Below are positions 1-7,930 of a DNA stretch of 7,930 bases, piece by piece. A program made the position numbers and the translations under genes. The notes beneath the pieces are model-generated. The model was not told the DNA's origin. It saw only the letters and a list, made by a program, of their open reading frames with translations, and did no database searches. The DNA is from a virus. Taxonomy: Duplodnaviria > Heunggongvirae > Uroviricota > Caudoviricetes. The stretch is taken from IMG/VR virus record IMGVR_UViG_2654587569_000015. The stretch is one strand, 5' to 3'. Each line of letters opens with the position of its first letter. The first letter of the stretch is position 1.

Positions 1-696
1 ATGAAAAAGGAAATACTCAAGGCTCTTTGCCCTACATGCGGTGGGTTACGTAACTGCACTGTGCATGGGAAGCTAACCACTAGCTGGGAGGATTCCCAAT
101 ATCCAGTTTATGGGTACCATTACCATCACCTACTCCAATGCAATGGCTGTGATACTGTCTTCTATCACCACAACGAACACTTCAGTGAGCATACTACCCA
201 CGAATATCGTGATGGTGAATTTGTAGAAACGCCTATAGATATGATCACTACCTATCCTGCCGCTGAAACATTTCAAGCTCCGATATGGTTATCCAAGCTT
301 GAATCAGTTGATCGTCAGCTCTTTCAAATATTTAATGAAATGTATTCTTCATATACTTCTGACCATTTCATTCTTTCGTCCATCGGTTTACGGACGATTT
401 TTGATCGAACTGCTGAACTGTTACAAATTCACCCCGGTTTGCCGCTTGGTGAAAAAGTTGAAAAATTAAAACAAGATGGAGTCATAGGCGACACTGAGGC
501 ATGCGTTATATCTTCAGTAATTGATGCAGGAAACGCCGCCGCACATCGCAGTTGGAGCCCGAATAAAAGTGAGTTCGAACAAATGCTAGAAGCTATAGAA
601 AGTTTTGTCCAAAGAACTATCTTGGGCAAAAGATCACTTGAACATATAACCAAACAACTCCCACCTCGGGTTACAAGACCTAAAAATAATGCATAA
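1..696 (+). CDS. Hypothetical cargo protein: N-terminal Cys/His-rich zinc-ribbon-like region plus C-terminal alpha-helical domain with GNAAAH motif (DUF4145-/HEPN-like by memory only); candidate defence or anti-defence moron
   Basis: Uninterrupted 231-codon ORF, ATG at 1-3, TAA at 694-696. Two CxxC pairs about 33 residues apart (CPTC ... CNGC), flanked by His-rich stretches, consistent with a zinc ribbon. Residues ~95-215 are helix-prone and contain VIDAGNAAAHRSW. GC content by eye is roughly 40-45%, against roughly 55-65% in the adjacent baseplate genes. Upstream context and RBS are not visible because the window starts at the ATG. Function is inferred, not demonstrated. Confidence 0.7.
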   Translation: MKKEILKALCPTCGGLRNCTVHGKLTTSWEDSQYPVYGYHYHHLLQCNGCDTVFYHHNEHFSEHTTHEYRDGEFVETPIDMITTYPAAETFQAPIWLSKLESVDRQLFQIFNEMYSSYTSDHFILSSIGLRTIFDRTAELLQIHPGLPLGEKVEKLKQDGVIGDTEACVISSVIDAGNAAAHRSWSPNKSEFEQMLEAIESFVQRTILGKRSLEHITKQLPPRVTRPKNNA

Positions 697-722: not shown

Positions 723-1280
723 TTATGGTTTACTTGCTACAGGGAATTTTTTATACACCGTTGAAATACCCAGATCATAAATCAGTGCGACTTGCTGCTG
801 ATATATTCCCGATTCAATCAACCTGCCAGCCTGCTCCCATTGTTCTACTGTCAGCTTTGGCTTTCGTCCACCGTTCCTCCCTTCTTGTCGTGCTGCGGCA
901 AAGCCCGCCCTAGTAAGTTCGACAATAAGCTCTCGCTCCATTTCAGCCAAGGCACCCATCACATGAAAGAAAAAGCGCCCCATTGGTGTGCTGGTATCAA
1001 TAGCATCCGTCAGGCTGCGAAAATTAACGCCACATTCGCGCAACTCCTCAACCAGAATGACCAGATGCCGCATACTACACCCCAGCCGATCCAGCTTCCA
1101 GACAACCAGAGTGTCACCTGCCGATAATGTCCTGAGCAGTTTTTTCAGTCCCGGCCTTTCGGACTTTGTACCGCTTATCTTGTCTTCAAAAATCAGCTCG
1201 CATCCTGCACAGTTCAGCGCATTACGTTGTAGATCTGTGTTCTGGTCATTTGTTGACACACGTACATAGCCAATAAGCAT
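723..1280 (-). CDS. pin: Gin/Pin/Hin/Cin-family serine DNA invertase
   Basis: Translation from the ATG at 1280 begins MLIGYVRVSTNDQNTDLQRNAL, the N-terminus typical of Gin/Pin/Hin invertases, with the Ser nucleophile in the YVRVS motif, GRFFFHVMGALAEMEREL, and a C-terminal helix-turn-helix (QVALIYDLGISTVYKKF). SD-like GGGAGA lies about 8 nt upstream of the 1280 ATG. The longer track ORF (start 1316, MASFLL...) is rejected as the start. Stop TAA at 725-723. The symbol is a family-level guess; Pin and Gin cannot be told apart without alignment. Confidence 0.9.
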   Translation of the reverse strand: MLIGYVRVSTNDQNTDLQRNALNCAGCELIFEDKISGTKSERPGLKKLLRTLSAGDTLVVWKLDRLGCSMRHLVILVEELRECGVNFRSLTDAIDTSTPMGRFFFHVMGALAEMERELIVELTRAGFAAARQEGRNGGRKPKLTVEQWEQAGRLIESGIYQQQVALIYDLGISTVYKKFPVASKP

Positions 1281-1334
1281 GGTAGATCTCCCTGACAAAA
1301 GCAGGAATGATGCCATTTGCTCGTTATTTCTGCA

Positions 1335-1360
1335 TTTTCATAAACGTTGGTTTGGGAGAA
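1335..1360. repeat. gix/hix-like recombination crossover site (invertase-proximal boundary of invertible segment)
   Basis: Plus strand reads TTTTCATAAACG-TT-GGTTTGGGAGAA, i.e. two 12-bp half-sites around a 2-bp core. Its reverse complement TTCTCCCAAACCAACGTTTATGAAAA resembles the hixL/gixL consensus as I recall it (TTCTYnnAAACCAAGGTTTTnGAnAA). Positions 1347-1361 are a perfect 15-bp inverted repeat of 3255-3269. Confidence 0.75.
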
Positions 1361-1720
1361 GCGGCAAAGCGGGATGTGGGGACAGGGGAAAATCAGATAC
1401 CGGACATGGCCTCTTTTGCCAGTGGTGATGGATGGATGAAATTACCCAACGGGAAAATCCTGCAATATGGTCGTGGTGCGGTTACGCCGACATTATCGAC
1501 GCAAACAATGAGAATTACATTCAGCATCCCTTTCCCCAAAAAAGCGGACTGCGCCATGCTTACTCATTCTGGTGATGGCGGTGCGCCTTTAGGCGCTGGG
1601 CGAGGGTTCGTGATGACTGCAGAAGGCCCAACGTTAACCGGCTTTAATTCTGCTTACAGAACGTCATCAACCAGTGACACGGTATCGATGAATTACAGTT
1701 GGTGGGCTGTTGGTGAGTAA
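1337..1720 (+). CDS. Silent alternative tail-fibre C-terminal variable segment (S'v-like); lacks its own N-terminus and would be fused to the constant fibre N-terminus only after inversion
   Basis: Open frame reads in phase through the gix site (FINVGLGEAAKRD...) and continues ...SGDGWMKLPNGKILQYGRGAVTP..., typical of phage fibre-tip domains. Stop TAA at 1718-1720, immediately followed by a tfa gene. Frame phasing matches the fibre gene at the other gix site. Confidence 0.65.
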   Translation, partial: FINVGLGEAAKRDVGTGENQIPDMASFASGDGWMKLPNGKILQYGRGAVTPTLSTQTMRITFSIPFPKKADCAMLTHSGDGGAPLGAGRGFVMTAEGPTLTGFNSAYRTSSTSDTVSMNYSWWAVGE

Positions 1721-1740
1721 TTTTATTCAGGGTGATTTAT

Positions 1741-2184
1741 ATGAACGAATATGTTTATAGCGCAAGGCATAATGCTTTTTTCCCTGTGGATATGATTGAT
1801 AAATATAAATCAGAGGGATGGGATTTATCAGACGCTAAGGAAGTAAATCAAAATATTATCAGTGAGTTTATGGCTGAACCGCCACAAGGAAAAATCCGTA
1901 TTGCCGGAGATGATGGGCTGCCTGCGTGGGCAGATATTCCTCTACCCACGTATGAAGAACTTATTGAAATTACTGAATCAGAAAGACAGCTGCTAATTAA
2001 CCAGGCCAACGAATACATGAACAGTAAGCAATGGCCCGGTAAAGCCGCTATTGGTCGTCTGAAAGATGATGAACTGGCGCAATATAATTTGTGGCTGGAT
2101 TATCTGGACGCACTGGAAATGGTCGATACTTCCGGTGCGCCAGATATTGAATGGCCTACGCCTCCGGCAGTTCAGGCCAGATGA
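1741..2184 (+). CDS. Tail fibre assembly protein (alternative chaperone, Mu U'-like / Tfa family)
   Basis: Product of about 147 aa from the ATG at 1741 (MNEYVYSARHNAFFPVDM...). The track's 1732 start is a GTG; the ATG at 1741 has SD-like GGGTGA 6-7 nt upstream. The C-terminus ...LWLDYLDALEMVDTSGAPDIEWPTPP matches the conserved Tfa C-terminal motif also present in the convergent tfa. Stop TGA at 2182-2184. Confidence 0.8.
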   Translation: MNEYVYSARHNAFFPVDMIDKYKSEGWDLSDAKEVNQNIISEFMAEPPQGKIRIAGDDGLPAWADIPLPTYEELIEITESERQLLINQANEYMNSKQWPGKAAIGRLKDDELAQYNLWLDYLDALEMVDTSGAPDIEWPTPPAVQAR

Positions 2185-2758
2185 CATCCGGCGCGGTGCT
2201 GGTATCTGTTGCCGTCACCGCGTCAATGTAATCCAGCACAGCGTTAAGCCGGGTTGTTTCTGCCTGCGTCAGTTTACGTCCGGCCCGCAATTTCAGTTGA
2301 ATCAGACTAATGGAAACCATTGCAGCATCAATCAGCGACTGCCGCTGTGTTTCTGCCATGTCTACTGCTGCTCTATGCTGTGCCTCGGTATCCGTCACCC
2401 ATTTCTCACCATCCCATTTATCGTATGGCGTTAACGGGGCGATAGTGGTTGTCTTTTCAGGGTAATCACCCGGAGCTGTGATTTCTTTTGATTCTCCCGT
2501 TTCGGTGTTATAGACAACTTCACCGCGATGGTCTGGCACATATTCCCATGAGTTAAAATCTGCAGAACGGCAGATTGCATAACCAGCTTTATGTGTAACT
2601 GGCGCATCTAAACAAGAACATGCCGGGATACCGACGCCAACCGCAAGATATTCAGTTGATGTGGAAATATATTCCCGCGTTTCACCATCATAATTATAAA
2701 TGGTAATGTCTCCCGCTTTTATAGCAATGAGTTCGTTATTTAATACCGCTTTATTCAT
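2156..2758 (-). CDS. Tail fibre assembly protein (Tfa, Mu U / P2 G-like), currently coupled to the expressed fibre
   Basis: 200-aa product [30 protein letters not shown]... with C-terminal ...LNAVLDYIDAVTATDTSTAPDVIWPELPEA, the Tfa family signature. Its start overlaps the fibre stop (TGATG at 2760-2756), indicating translational coupling. Confidence 0.85.
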   Translation of the reverse strand: MNKAVLNNELIAIKAGDITIYNYDGETREYISTSTEYLAVGVGIPACSCLDAPVTHKAGYAICRSADFNSWEYVPDHRGEVVYNTETGESKEITAPGDYPEKTTTIAPLTPYDKWDGEKWVTDTEAQHRAAVDMAETQRQSLIDAAMVSISLIQLKLRAGRKLTQAETTRLNAVLDYIDAVTATDTSTAPDVIWPELPEA

Positions 2759-3558
2759 CAGGCAGCCCTCACGATATAATTAAAGGCAATGTTACGAGGA
2801 CGGTTTTCGTTTGCAGTTGGAACAATTCTTGAAGCATCAAGGCCAATCACTTTTGGGTAAACAGCGCCGTCTGCTCTTTCTGTCACCATACTTCTGGTTA
2901 AGGAGAAATAACTATTGTTTGTAGAGGGACTCAATGGCACTATGGCCCCCTTAAACGAGCCTGCTGTTTCCCATATTGAATAATTTTCAGTGTTTACAGT
3001 TCTGAACTCACCATAGATATTACGTATGGCATCGCCCTGAGCTGATAATATTGTTCTCCCCGCATCCGCACTACGCCCATCATCCCAGCCACGAATAAAT
3101 TCACCGCGTAAATCAGGCAATTTATTTGTCGGGTAAGCCTTTGCCAGTTCCGGGTATTCTTCAGCAGAAAAAGCCGCACCATTGCATTTCAGCCAGCCTG
3201 TCGGCGGAGTGGCGGAAGGCCACGGAACAGGCACACCGACAGGTAATGCAGAGCCTTCTCCCAAACCAAGGTTTTCGAGAGCCGTTTTCACCGTGCCATC
3301 CGATTTGATATCACCAAACGGATTCTTGCGGCTTAACAGCAGCGCATGAAGCGCGGTAAGCAACTGGTCGTTTCGCCCCTTCTCCAGGCTGGCACCGGAT
3401 GCCTCCACCACGCCACAAAGCTCTTCCTGCAACATGTCAAAGTAGTCATCATCCAGATCGGTAGCAGGCGTGCCAGTCTGGGGGTTACCACGGGTAAAAC
3501 CGTTCTTACCCGCGCCGAACTTATCCTTCTGCGCGGTTTTAGTGTCTATGCGATGCAT
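2758..3558 (-). CDS. Tail fibre protein (Mu S-like) with tail-collar-type C-terminal receptor-binding domain; residues 1 to ~100 are the constant part, the remainder lies inside the invertible segment
   Basis: 266-aa ORF with GGAG about 8 nt upstream of the ATG at 3558. The C-terminal region contains [22 protein letters not shown]...[15 protein letters not shown], matching the phage tail collar motif as I recall it (W..C(D/N)G....YP.L...LPDLRG). A gix-like site is embedded at codons ~93-101. Confidence 0.85.
3256..3281. repeat. gix/hix-like recombination crossover site (invertase-distal boundary, inside the tail-fibre gene)
   Basis: Plus strand reads TTCTCCCAAACC-AA-GGTTTTCGAGAG. The inner half-site is identical to the inner half-site of the 1335-1360 site in inverted orientation, and the core dinucleotides are compatible (AA/TT). 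The site lies in frame within the fibre CDS at the constant/variable junction ([10 protein letters not shown]). Confidence 0.75.
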
Positions 3559-3562
3559 GGGA

Positions 3563-4147
3563 TTACTCCGGATATTTAAAAATTACGTAGGTATGCGACG
3601 GGCAGAGTTTGTTAAGCACACACTCGACAACGGTGTCACCCCAGATACGCAGTGCGGAATCACAGGGATCGCCACATGTCATCCAGGTGGTGTTGGTGGC
3701 GGCTGGCATGTTGACCTGCCAGTAATACCGCCATTCCGGCGCATTCACCGCGTCAGTACAGGCCGATGAGCAGGTGAACGTGCTTTTGTCGTATCGCGTG
3801 ATGGTAGCGTCTGGTCTGCCCAGGGCAGCAAGCTGTGCAAGATAAAAATTCTCGTTGATGCCGCCCGCCAGGTTAACCTTCGCATCCAGCCGTTGCTGAC
3901 GCTGGCGAAGGGTCTGTGTCCCTGCGGGAATACATTCATCCGGCAGACCACACAGACGCTCCCAGCGGTTTATCAGTTCAGTGGTGGTGCGCGGATCCAG
4001 CTCCCGCATCAGGGCATCCGCACGCTGATGAGCGCGGGTTAATGACGGTGCCGCACCGGCAATCGCCGGATCGCTGGCTGACCACGCCGGACCGGGGGGC
4101 AACAGTGCCGACAACAGATGGATGTAATCATCGTTTGTCACGTCCAT
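3563..4147 (-). CDS. Mu gp48-like tail protein (DUF2313 / YmfQ-like)
   Basis: 194-aa [26 protein letters not shown]...; the size, the N-terminal motif and the position between the J-like baseplate gene and the fibre match Mu gp48-type proteins. 4-bp gap to the fibre start. Confidence 0.75.
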
Positions 4148-5196
4148 GAAATCGTCCCCAGTACCGCCAGTTCATTTTTTGCAATGGAGATATTGTCCGC
4201 CGGTGCAAGCAACTGATGGCTGTATTCCCCGTTCGCACCGGAAATCGCCTCACTGATACGCGACACCTTCAGTTCTCCCTGCGGATAACCATCACGCAGC
4301 AGGAACGAACGCAACTCGGCGGTGATGGCAGCCCGTATTTCCGGTGTGTCCGGCGTCACGCGGATATGAAAATCCACTTTATGCGCCACCGGCCTGAATA
4401 CATACAAATCAGAGCCTGCTACCGGGGCCAGTGGCTCAATGTGTTGTCTTGCCGCCGTTTCCGTTGATTCTTCCGGAATGGGATTAATCAGGTCACTGCT
4501 GGCAATCATCACACCGACAGTCCCCGTTCCCATCCAGTGGCGGTATGTCCATGCACGGGTAATGCCTGGCACTTCTTTAGCCCAGACAACATAGTCCCCG
4601 TCAGCCCCGCCCTGAGGCGTCCAGTAATACCGCTCAATGACGCGGGCGCGCCACGTTTCCAGCTCTTCAGTATCAAATCCACCTGTCAGAGTGTCTGCCA
4701 CGCCGGAAGACGGCAGACCATTCACCGGCGTGACCAGGATTAATGACGTACCGTCGTCAGCGTTACCGACCGCTCCTGCACTTGAGCAGGCGATCGGCAC
4801 GCGCAGGACAACACCGGAGCTGGTTGCATCGGCAGTTGCCGTGTACTGAACCAGGTCATCGCGCTGAATAACACTCCCGGCGGTCACCTTCAGGCCATCG
4901 CTGACACCTTCCCAGCGCATATACCCGCTGGCAGCCGTGGCCCCCTTGCGCGGACACCGTTTCATCGCAGCATGTCGCGCCAGCCAGGACTCATCGCACA
5001 GGTCAGGCAGCATATTCATTGCCAGATAATCGATGTAACCGTAAACCGTATGCAGCGCCGCCGCATACACCTTTGCCCGCACGTCTTCATCCATGCGCCG
5101 GAGCGTGTCGCTGACGTCCAGCCTGGCGAATAAATCGTTACGGAGCATACTGATATTTTCTGCCAGCGTCGGGCGCTGAAATTCACTGTCCGCCAT
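4138..5196 (-). CDS. Baseplate J-like protein (Mu gp47 / P2 gpJ family)
   Basis: 352-aa ORF whose size and position (upstream of the gp48-like and fibre genes) fit a baseplate wedge J-like protein. Overlaps neighbours by 10 and 14 bp, typical of coupled baseplate operons. Confidence 0.8.
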
Positions 5197-5611
5197 GCGT
5201 TATCGCACTCCACAGATCATCAAAAGAAATCATTACCGGTCCGTCACGACGCCAGAGAGTGATACTGTTACCCAGTTCATTAATCCCGGTGCGGCGGATA
5301 TCCAGATCAATACGGGACACCACGCCGTCATCAATCATCCATTGCAGGCATTCGCGGATATACCCCCTTACCGTCTGCACCAGCTGATTGGTCAGTTTGC
5401 TGCGCTGAAGCAGCCACAGTCGGGAGCCGTAACGGTCATTCTGTACCGCAGGCCAGGTATCCCCCCACCATCCCATCGGGACGTCGGCGTTGTCATCAGG
5501 CTCCGCCCGCCGCCAGGTAAACAGGGAAATCACCACGGCGCGGGTCAGCGGATCCAGCGGTGCGCTGGCGCAGGTGCGTTTACCGTTCACCGTCAGCCAC
5601 AGTTCCATCAT
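5183..5611 (-). CDS. Mu gp46-like baseplate protein
   Basis: 142-aa ORF (MMELWLTVNGK...) in the gp46 position between the gp45-like and J-like genes. GGAGG precedes tandem ATGs at 5611 and 5608, so the start may be either; it overlaps the upstream stop (ATGATG). Confidence 0.75.
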   Translation of the reverse strand: MMELWLTVNGKRTCASAPLDPLTRAVVISLFTWRRAEPDDNADVPMGWWGDTWPAVQNDRYGSRLWLLQRSKLTNQLVQTVRGYIRECLQWMIDDGVVSRIDLDIRRTGINELGNSITLWRRDGPVMISFDDLWSAITHGGQ

Positions 5612-6156
5612 GCCTCCATCGCTTTATCCGGTTTGTCGGTGTTACTGCCCTGACCGTTCTCTCTGTGACGATGCCCGTTATAGGCAAGCCGCATCGCTGA
5701 CATGGTGGTGCCGCCGGAGTCGCACAGGTCTTTCACCTGTCCTGTCACTTCCAGGTCCATTTCAAAACGTGCTTTAGGTGAATTGCGAAACGTGATCGTT
5801 TTACCTGCACCGTCCACCACGATCCCCTCCCGGGTCAGCGTCACGGACTGCCCCTGATCATCATAGACAGCCACCTCACCCGTCTGCAGCCCTTTCAGGC
5901 GGTAGCGCCGGTCCGACACCGTAACAACCACCGCATGAGAACGGTCGCCATCCGGAAACAACACCACCGCTTCCGCACCGCTGTTTGCCCTTGCGGTAAA
6001 ACCGTAGGGTTCAAGATGTTCAACCCCGGCTTTGGGTTCACCGGCAATCAGGGACACATCCACGGTCTGACATTTCGTGGCGGCACTGATGCTTTTCACC
6101 ACTGCCCGCCCAATCAGGCCGAGAAGTTGTCGCTGCATGGCTTCAATCGTCCTCAT
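5608..6156 (-). CDS. Mu gp45-like baseplate assembly / spike protein (gpV-like)
   Basis: 182-aa ORF with a Gly/Val-rich beta-type sequence (GEVAVYDDQGQSVTLTREGIVVDGAGKTITF) typical of gpV/gp45 spike proteins. Start overlaps the stop of the upstream gene at 6156. Confidence 0.75.
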   Translation of the reverse strand: MRTIEAMQRQLLGLIGRAVVKSISAATKCQTVDVSLIAGEPKAGVEHLEPYGFTARANSGAEAVVLFPDGDRSHAVVVTVSDRRYRLKGLQTGEVAVYDDQGQSVTLTREGIVVDGAGKTITFRNSPKARFEMDLEVTGQVKDLCDSGGTTMSAMRLAYNGHRHRENGQGSNTDKPDKAMEA

Positions 6157-7235
6157 CAGAACGGGTCCTCCTGTACTCTGGCTTTTTTCTTTTTCCGCGC
6201 GCCGGGGGCTTCGGGTTCAGGCAGATAAGCATCAGGCGGGCCGACACGGATTTCCGTCAGGGTGCCGTTCTGGTCCTGAGTAAACGTGACTTCCGAAACA
6301 AGCAGTTCGGTATTGTCGAAACCACAGACCGGATCAAAGACAATCACCCGCTGGTTGGGCTGCCACAGCGTACCGTTACCCTGTCGCCAGCCCTGCACCA
6401 CATAGGTGGTTTCATCCGTCCGCGCCGCCCGTTGTCGGGATTCAAAGTCCGCACGGGCAATACAGCCTGCCCCCGTAGCCTGCCCTGTCTGCCTGATATA
6501 CATCGGACGGTAACGGGCAATAAATGCATCCTCTGTGCGGGCCCGCAGCGCGGTGGTGGTGGCCTCACCGAAATCATCGTCGTTTCCGGCACGCTGCCCC
6601 GCCACCTGGTAAACAGAAAACCGCTCCCGGATACTCTTCTCCGTATCGCAGGAAAGGATGTTTTCCCCGAGTACCAGCGCAGTATGTGCCCGCGTTGAGC
6701 CAATACCGCCAATCACCAGCCTGCCGTGCGGGTCGTCGTAAGCCAGTGCCTGCTGCTGACCGAGTATTTTGTTGATTACCTCAATCACCGTTTCACCGTG
6801 ATCAGGCTGGACGTCAGGAATAACACCCGACGGCGCACCGTTGTTCACCACCTCAATGCCGAAAGGCGCAGCAAGCGCCTGCGCAATCTGTACCAGCGAT
6901 CGTCCATTAAACTGTGTCGGTTCGGCTGCACAGTCAATCAGGTCAGCGGTCAGACTGCGTCCGGCAATACCGGTGCTGACCGAACGGGCATCGTAACGAA
7001 CGGGCGTCGCCTCCACCCAGCCGGTGATCACCAGCTCATCACCAATCAGCACCTCCACTTTTGAACCGTTTTTAATGCGCGGCTGAAGCGTGGTAATACC
7101 CTCATCTCCCGGCCACTGGCGGGTGATCTCCACACTGAAATCCCGCGCCAGCCGTTCAATACCGGCACCGATGCGCACCGATGTCCAGCCATTCCACTCC
7201 CGGCCATTTACCCGTAGCGTGACATTGTCGTTCAT
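6156..7235 (-). CDS. Mu P (gp44)-like tail / baseplate hub protein
   Basis: 359-aa ORF starting MNDNVTLRVNGREWNGW..., in the position and of the size expected for Mu P-like or P2 gpD-like baseplate hub proteins. Start overlaps the stop of the N-like gene (ATGA at 7232-7235). Confidence 0.75.
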   Translation of the reverse strand: MNDNVTLRVNGREWNGWTSVRIGAGIERLARDFSVEITRQWPGDEGITTLQPRIKNGSKVEVLIGDELVITGWVEATPVRYDARSVSTGIAGRSLTADLIDCAAEPTQFNGRSLVQIAQALAAPFGIEVVNNGAPSGVIPDVQPDHGETVIEVINKILGQQQALAYDDPHGRLVIGGIGSTRAHTALVLGENILSCDTEKSIRERFSVYQVAGQRAGNDDDFGEATTTALRARTEDAFIARYRPMYIRQTGQATGAGCIARADFESRQRAARTDETTYVVQGWRQGNGTLWQPNQRVIVFDPVCGFDNTELLVSEVTFTQDQNGTLTEIRVGPPDAYLPEPEAPGARKKKKARVQEDPF

Positions 7236-7930
7236 TGCACTGGCACCTTCAGAGGGATCACCGGCACAAAGCCGGGATGCGTAATGGCATTACGCCGGAT
7301 AATGTCCGCGTCACGCGCCGCGTTATCAAACCAGGTCGCTGCCAGCACCAGCGCGGGTAAAACCTCATCCGGTGTGCGCTGAATGATCCGTGCAGACTGT
7401 TCAAGGCGCGTGTTGATATCCGCATTCAGATCTGCTTTCACCCGGCGCAGCGCCAGAAACAGCGCATCACTGGTTGTACGGGACAACTCCTTATCAATTG
7501 CCGTATTCAGTGTGTCGCGAATGTCGGTCAGTTCTTCCCACGTTGGCAGGTCAACCGTGTTTTTCACCGCCGGTGCATTGTTCAGTGCCGGATGCGTGAC
7601 AGAAGGCCAGCCGGTGCTCTGCGCGGGTGTTGTTGACTGCCCCACTGTGGCATTCTGCATCACCGCGGAAGTTGTTGGCGCAGGCAATCTGGTGACGGCA
7701 TACGCCGCTTCGCTGATTGCGGTCGTACGAAGGGTGCTGGCAACCACATTACGCTGCTGCGTCGCCGTGGCGGTGGTTTTACTGTCCGTTTTCCAGACGC
7801 CGCGCGGTTGCAGATCGCTGCCGAGGCTGACACCGGAAAGCGTTTTGATCATGGTGACCAGGTCGCTGGCGTTACCATAAAGGCGTTTCCCGGTACGCCA
7901 CATTTTCTGCACCTGCTCAACGAAATTTTT
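7232..7930 (-). CDS. Mu N (gp43)-like DNA circularisation protein, 3' portion only (5' end lies beyond the window)
   Basis: The frame stays open from 7232 to the window edge; the track start at 7912 is a GTG and the in-frame codons 7913-7930 carry no stop. Ala/Thr-rich, helical C-terminal sequence and the position immediately upstream of the P-like gene fit Mu N. Confidence 0.7.
   Translation of the reverse strand, partial: KNFVEQVQKMWRTGKRLYGNASDLVTMIKTLSGVSLGSDLQPRGVWKTDSKTTATATQQRNVVASTLRTTAISEAAYAVTRLPAPTTSAVMQNATVGQSTTPAQSTGWPSVTHPALNNAPAVKNTVDLPTWEELTDIRDTLNTAIDKELSRTTSDALFLALRRVKADLNADINTRLEQSARIIQRTPDEVLPALVLAATWFDNAARDADIIRRNAITHPGFVPVIPLKVPVQ

Follow-up and report, generated by a model that had tools for sequence, protein, structure and literature searches.

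The gene at positions 1 to 696 of the window (the whole analyzed stretch of 7,930 nt) encodes a protein of 231 aa in which an N-terminal zinc-binding domain is followed by a C-terminal DUF4145/HEPN domain. Judged by its sequence, it fits best among RAZR-like zinc-ribbon/DUF4145 defence candidates and belongs to a large family whose sensor fold differs from that of RAZR and whose putative active site is non-canonical. By analogy to RAZR, we give somewhat better than even chances to the reading that it is a single-gene, phage-triggered HEPN effector which the temperate phage carries to exclude other phages. Within the window the gene is foreign cargo (a 'moron') of an SfV/e14-type temperate phage. 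The features referred to below are the following:

1-696, plus strand: gene of the zinc-ribbon plus DUF4145/HEPN protein (ATG start, TAA stop at 694-696; from the ORF listing and translation)
1-288 (about aa 1-96), plus strand: N-terminal all-beta zinc-binding domain, presumed sensor
28-39, plus strand: first zinc knuckle, C10-P-T-C13, read from the sequence (C10 94% and C13 93% conserved in 150 representatives)
139-150, plus strand: second zinc knuckle, C47-N-G-C50, read from the sequence (C47 99%, G49 95% and C50 98% conserved)
289-630 (about aa 97-210), plus strand: C-terminal helical DUF4145/HEPN domain, presumed effector
385-408, plus strand: GLRTIFDR motif, aa 129-136 (R131 100%, G129 91%, T132 90%, D135 96%)
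526-555, plus strand: AGNAAAHRSW motif, aa 176-185 (H182 and W185 invariant, R183 97%; I174 at H-8)
723-1316, minus strand: Pin/Gin-type serine invertase (Pfam Resolvase, E 2.2e-46, and HTH_7; pinE or 'recombinase family protein' in E. coli)
1342-3274, no strand: invertible tail-fibre segment (20-nt inverted repeats at 1342-1361 and 3255-3274, 95% complementary)
Outside the window, directly 5' of position 1: leader of the gene (5655-6000 of locus L002, the same as 11655-12000 of locus L001)

The gene, its product and the protein family

The ORF is real and forms a complete CDS on the plus strand according to the ORF listing and the translation. RefSeq contains a CDS of identical extent (696 nt), the product of which is WP_001514810.1, a 'DUF4145 domain-containing protein'. 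Complete E. coli genomes show an in-frame TAA 27 nt 5' of the ATG, and no start codon lies between the two. Because of this upstream stop and the matching RefSeq CDS, the gene truly starts with the ATG of position 1. An earlier reading of the DNA, made from the letters only (the sequence-only reading), had described the gene as lower in GC than the tail module and as transcribed convergently to the invertase. Both descriptions hold: its GC content is 41.5% (GC3 34.6%), whereas the invertase has 48% and the baseplate module (3563-7912) 57.8%, and the invertase ORF on the opposite strand ends after a gap of 26 nt.

The two motifs which that reading had picked out are found in the translation. 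The pairs C10/C13 and C47/C50 are separated by 33 residues (CxxC-x33-CxxC, aa 10-50), and VIDAGNAAAH occupies aa 173-182 of the 231 aa. The suspected DUF4145/HEPN domain, for which a profile-HMM search had been proposed, was recovered by Pfam: DUF4145 (PF13643) matches aa 115-199 with 39 bits, above the gathering cut-off of 23.1 (E 8.7e-10), and the match spans profile positions 4-87 of 88 (84/88). Nothing else notable was reported by the Pfam scan. HNH, GIY-YIG, GNAT and Mom domains were all absent from the 231-aa protein, as had been assumed for HNH and GNAT. PHROG 1305 matches the full-length protein (E 1.5e-42); its label 'DNA binding protein' is a putative annotation. Searches against the PADLOC library (5,027 defence models) and NCBIfam gave no match.

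The AlphaFold2 model of the full-length protein (pLDDT 84.8) consists of an all-beta N-domain spanning aa 1-85, a short linker and a helical C-domain spanning aa 97-208. As modelled, the C-domain adopts the all-alpha helical-bundle fold of HEPN proteins. Its structural matches are AF0298 (2hsb, 12.2), AbiA (10.2), a HEPT toxin (5yep, 10.2), a HEPN toxin (7ae2, 9.2) and Csm6 (9.1), and the Foldseek result was concordant. The N-domain, about 95 aa with long beta hairpins, had no match among solved folds.

The arginine of the canonical HEPN motif had been noted as apparently replaced by glycine. Its absence was confirmed but the glycine was misplaced: DUF4145/RAZR has an Rx7H spacing (R146/H154 in RAZR), so that the counterpart here is I174, and G177 is found at H-5. 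No Arg or Lys is present in the helix 164-181, which carries H182. Since this helix is devoid of basic residues, the arginine would have to come from elsewhere if the domain is catalytic. R131, located in the helix 123-140, or R183 at H+1 may supply the missing charge, as far as the sequence can suggest.

A profile search of 1.84 billion representative proteins yielded 297 clusters at E<=1e-30 and 1,470 at E<=1e-10. These approximately 300 clusters (50% identity) are distributed over Proteobacteria, Acidobacteriota and Bacteroidota, and the best 150 matches were nearly all full-length with about 230 aa. Conservation was determined in 150 family representatives with 25-46% identity to the query. 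All of them (150/150) matched PF13643, and none matched a PADLOC model. R131, H182 and W185 were invariant in this set. Residues conserved to at least 90% were C10, C13, C47, C50, G129, T132, D135, K152, A176-G177, A179-A181, R183, P187, E200 and P221, with 93-99% for the four cysteines and at least 93% for D135 and R183. Given this conservation of the cysteines and the invariance of H182, the zinc and His motifs are not due to chance.

The consensus of the His region is [LV]x[DEN]AG[NS]AAAHRGW, and the residue at H-8 was T, I, V, A or S wherever the motif was found among the representatives. The missing HEPN arginine is thus a stable trait of the family rather than a sign of decay, because these residues occupy H-8 family-wide and the helix holds no basic residue. 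The N-domain is the more variable and the HEPN domain the more conserved half of the protein: mean column entropy was 2.65 and 2.12, respectively, and distant homologues share 24-41% identity in the N-domain versus 50-60% in the C-domain.

Genomic setting

In E. coli the gene is rare: 34 of 5,426 complete genomes contained it, all copies being at least 99.4% identical. It is the last or the third-last gene of the prophage. At three dusA-site loci that were examined the order was dusA, integrase, dinI-like gene, zinc-ribbon-HEPN gene, pin and tail fibres. Strain QA-1986 630 carries the prophage at the bio-ybhB (lambda att) site, and here the zinc-ribbon-HEPN gene is the last prophage gene, with only pseudogene scraps and then host ybhB upstream of it. 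The sequence-only reading had considered that the gene might be the last one of a system continuing upstream of position 1 and had recommended an inspection of this region. In the complete E. coli genomes no partner genes were found there. Nothing upstream forms a system with the gene, since it is preceded by integrase and dinI-like genes or by scraps and ybhB, and no neighbour is conserved across 76 loci.

The prophage end adjacent to pin is a variable cargo slot which holds mcrA, a GIY-YIG gene or the zinc-ribbon-DUF4145 gene. That e14 carries mcrA at this place was confirmed in K-12 W3110, where mcrA is located beside pinE, and in two other strains the slot is occupied by a LEM-3-like GIY-YIG protein of 257 aa. 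McrA and the GIY-YIG protein share with our gene the place beside pinE at the prophage end, and are nuclease-type accessory genes. However, these cargo proteins are unrelated to the zinc-ribbon-HEPN protein, in which Pfam detects neither HNH nor GIY-YIG.

A separate case is the 55.6 kb 'plasmid' pSX12-2 of E. coli SX12, where alr, dnaB, qorA, pspG and dusA adjoin the prophage; probably this record reflects an artefact of assembly or a circle excised from the chromosome.

A non-coding leader of approximately 345 bp accompanies the gene in prophages at the dusA site and at the lambda att site, and may hold the promoter of the gene or a small RNA. Compared with Rfam, its best match was an insignificant one to CssrB (E 0.5), and nothing in the whole window reached a gathering score. 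Promoter and terminator scans returned no more sites than shuffled sequence. By eye, a possible short hairpin with a T-run is seen at the end of the leader, about 85 nt 5' of the ATG, which the scan of the plus strand did not call. One genome annotates the leader as a frameshifted 'capsid protein' scrap.

On the other side of the gene, the region from 723 to 3274 is a complete Pin-type invertible tail-fibre switch, whose invertible segment contains alternative fibre C-termini and two tail-fibre assembly genes. One of its repeats lies inside the fibre gene 2758-3558 (minus strand) and the other near the start of the ORF for an alternative fibre C-terminus, 1307-1720 (plus strand). The longest invertase ORF begins 36 nt upstream of the RefSeq start. 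A Mu-type baseplate and tail module makes up the remainder of the window; it is 97-98% identical to that of the Shigella phages SfIV, SfII, SfV and SfI and of related coliphages.

Relatives of the gene occupy cargo slots in prophages, conjugative elements, plasmids and defence islands, and are organised as stand-alone genes. The Enterobacter homologue (68% identical) is located at the outer edge of P2-like, lambda-like and P22-like prophages at one chromosomal site. The end of the P2-like prophage beside it is a dense cargo region. Over 2 kb (L005, 9625-11635) it contains umuDC-like genes (Peptidase_S24 and IMS) as well as genes for an SRAP protein, DinI and a hexapeptide acetyltransferase. 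The P2-like prophages of Pseudomonas and Burkholderia accommodate their homologue between gpS and gpV, on the strand of the late genes (L024, 6916-10605), at which position phage P2 itself has the non-essential, oppositely oriented orf30. The P2 S-V gap seems to be another slot that is used repeatedly for cargo.

Copies from Sphingomonadales share at least 80% identity among themselves and were found in at least 10 genera, beside F-type TraN and TraH. Loci of this type (L031, L034-L035, L037-L046, L048-L049 and L053) include two from Mesorhizobium and one from an uncultured alphaproteobacterium; the TraN/TraH neighbours were checked in L037 (3512-6760). The occurrence beside TraN/TraH in many genera suggests that these copies spread on a conjugative element. 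A 41%-identical member is encoded at 78399-79121 of plasmid pMT of Yersinia pestis Nepal516 and on about 50 other Yersinia plasmids. The pMT1 copy is flanked by copies of IS100 and IS256/IS1618 and is a few kb away from the phospholipase D (ymt) gene. Conjugative plasmids of Y. enterocolitica carry a 46%-identical copy, and one Burkholderia copy shares its island with Gabija-like, PRTase and reverse-transcriptase genes.

Across 76 non-redundant loci no conserved partner gene was found. The neighbour shared the strand of the gene in 42 of 73 loci on the upstream side and in 38 of 72 on the downstream side; such a neighbour came within 50 nt in only 12 loci on the former side and in 7 on the latter. 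Phage gpV (9 loci) and gpS (8 loci) were most often found directly adjacent, followed by type I, type IIG and type IV restriction genes, DISARM DrmMI, mad genes and an RT-protease. Defence neighbours are a minority (approximately 10-14 of 145 neighbour proteins). A nucleotidyltransferase (MNT antitoxin) was not among the 25 most frequent of the 102 neighbour families of the 76 loci.

Comparison with RAZR and other known systems

The only characterised protein with an N-terminal zinc finger and a C-terminal DUF4145 is RAZR, the ring-activated zinc-finger RNase originally named PD-T7-4 (Vassallo et al. 2022, PMC9519451; Zhang et al. 2026, PMC13017515). RAZR originates from E. coli UMB1727 (RRL46918.1; PDB 9Y6U and 9Y9C) and joins a Cys4 zinc finger at its N-terminus to a DUF4145 at its C-terminus, the latter being regarded as a divergent HEPN RNase (PMC13017515). 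R146 and H154 (Rx7H) are both required for defence, which is abolished by R146A (PMC13017515). Alone the protein is harmless. Its triggers are ring-shaped phage proteins (an Erf-like recombinase or a portal), around which 24 copies come together, and the activated protein cleaves ssRNA non-specifically, resulting in abortive infection (PMC13017515). Which phages are recognised depends on its zinc-finger domain, which varies more than the rest of the protein (PMC13017515).

The protein of the window resembles RAZR in several respects. Both are products of single genes, approximately 220-230 aa in length, with an N-terminal Cys4 domain, a linker and a C-terminal DUF4145 with a conserved His, and in both the N-domain is the more variable half. 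Both are located next to an integrase on mobile DNA. They differ in the N-domain, which has about 95 aa with long beta hairpins here but in RAZR is a compact RPB9-like ribbon of about 65 aa that contacts the trigger. Furthermore, R146 has no counterpart (I174, assuming a gap-free register of the helix), while R131, R183 and W185 are conserved here and the His (H182) is kept.

Direct membership in RAZR was considered and rejected, as phmmer and hmmsearch against PDB sequences and PADLOC were all negative. Neither phmmer nor two family profiles retrieved the RAZR chain from the PDB sequences at E<=10, although this set holds the RAZR entries, since a Gp77 query returns 9Y6U and 9Y9C. In PADLOC the protein and its 150 relatives had no match to PD-T7-4, whereby the release may not hold a PD-T7-4 model. 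At the level of HMMER comparisons the family appears to be separate from RAZR with a RAZR-like architecture. RNase activity is not assured, because the essential arginine of RAZR has no counterpart throughout the family. The trigger and the mode of activation could differ from those of RAZR as well, because the N-domain is larger and matches no solved fold.

Among other HEPN proteins, the profile match, the HEPN fold and the known fusion to a zinc ribbon connect the protein with Pfam DUF4145 (HEPN superfamily, clan KNTase_C). 'Zinc Ribbon' is listed among the DUF4145 fusions in the HEPN survey of Anantharaman et al. (2013), according to which about 20% of DUF4145 domains have no motif arginine and some HEPN families lack it. 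Lacking the Rx4-6H (Rx7H) motif, our protein differs from the majority and belongs to this minority. DS-38 (DefensePredictor; WP_001313577.1), a validated anti-phage protein of E. coli, likewise combines HEPN and Cys-rich zinc fingers in one protein, but it has 366 aa with an N-terminal HEPN domain carrying the canonical RNRVVH and a C-terminal region with multiple CxxC. Identity with DS-38 was rejected on account of the reversed domain order and an hhalign probability of 1.4% against the family. BxaP (BREX-associated) and Ishtar (anti-plasmid) also use a DUF4145/HEPN module in defence against mobile elements, with the difference that their DUF4145 is N-terminal, the C-domains are HEAT-like or beta/alpha and a zinc ribbon is absent. 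From HEPN-MNT toxin-antitoxin pairs the E. coli gene is distinguished by its neighbours, a dinI-like gene and pin, and by the lack of MNT among the listed neighbour families.

Probable function and alternatives

The suggestion of the sequence-only reading that the protein might be a defence effector is the best supported one, because RAZR, which has the same architecture, is an abortive-infection RNase and because the family is found in mobile cargo slots and beside restriction and defence genes. If the analogy to RAZR extends to trigger sensing by the N-domain, to the RNase chemistry and to the abortive outcome, the variable zinc-stapled beta domain would recognise a protein of the incoming phage and the C-terminal DUF4145/HEPN domain would thereby be switched on. 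The activated domain would then cut RNA and shut down translation, and the infected lysogen would die or stall ahead of any multiplication of the invader, which amounts to abortive infection and superinfection exclusion. What mainly limits this reading is the missing arginine.

One alternative is a non-catalytic HEPN domain, with the protein binding a nucleic acid or a ligand in a regulatory or adaptor role, like the HEPN-fold repressor MtlR. We regard this as unlikely. H182, R131 and W185 are invariant and R183 is kept in 97% over deep divergence, a pattern typical of a catalytic centre, and the label of PHROG 1305, being a putative annotation, counts little in its favour. The genomic company, too, consists of restriction and defence genes and mobile cargo slots and not of metabolic operons. 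The protein could also be an addiction toxin that stabilises the prophage, with a small RNA or a small peptide encoded in the conserved leader as antitoxin. HEPN toxins are common in toxin-antitoxin systems, the leader accompanies the gene in two integration contexts of the prophage, and the Erwinia homologue is located near a SymE toxin gene. This explanation seems rather improbable to us, given that the 76 loci have no conserved neighbouring ORF, MNT is missing from the 25 commonest neighbour families, the leader matches no Rfam family and RAZR as the closest analogue is non-toxic alone and requires a phage trigger.

A role for the phage itself during lytic growth, either as anti-defence factor or as an accessory of the lysis-lysogeny decision or of late genes, has the lowest probability of these alternatives and is in our view very improbable. 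It would agree with the position in P2-like prophages, within the late region between gpS and gpV and on the same strand, and 53 viral contigs of IMG/VR carry a relative. In contrast, a tblastn search of 50,697 deposited phage genomes did not detect a relative even at E<=1, which speaks against the anti-defence option raised by the sequence-only reading. Moreover, members of the family are encoded on conjugative elements, plasmids and chromosomal islands devoid of phage genes, and the low GC content, the possible hairpin 5' of the ATG and the position at the prophage edge resemble cargo expressed in the lysogen.

The same architecture has already been characterised as RAZR (2022, 2026), and for this reason the finding is less novel and will not surprise the specialist. 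If the gene is active, a widespread family of about 300 clusters that is invisible to PADLOC would join the single-gene anti-phage systems. It would also offer the natural comparison for RAZR, with the same overall plan, another sensor fold and no catalytic arginine, and this contrast allows direct tests of how HEPN nucleases become activated and of which residues they cannot do without. The pin-adjacent prophage end, with mcrA, GIY-YIG or zinc-ribbon-HEPN genes, and the P2 S-V gap are slots worth mining for defence genes.

Rather tentatively, the family may represent a second, independently built class of zinc-stapled HEPN sensors, in which a beta sensor of about 95 residues would respond to a phage or plasmid signal other than a ring, and an arginine-less centre of R131, H182, R183 and W185 would have an altered chemistry or substrate. 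If this were true, the principle of a sensor coupled to HEPN would be modular and far wider than PD-T7-4, and it would cover the copies fixed on Yersinia pestis pMT1 and on the conjugative elements of Sphingomonadales. For the present, the zinc-ribbon-HEPN family is a clean and testable extension of the RAZR principle.
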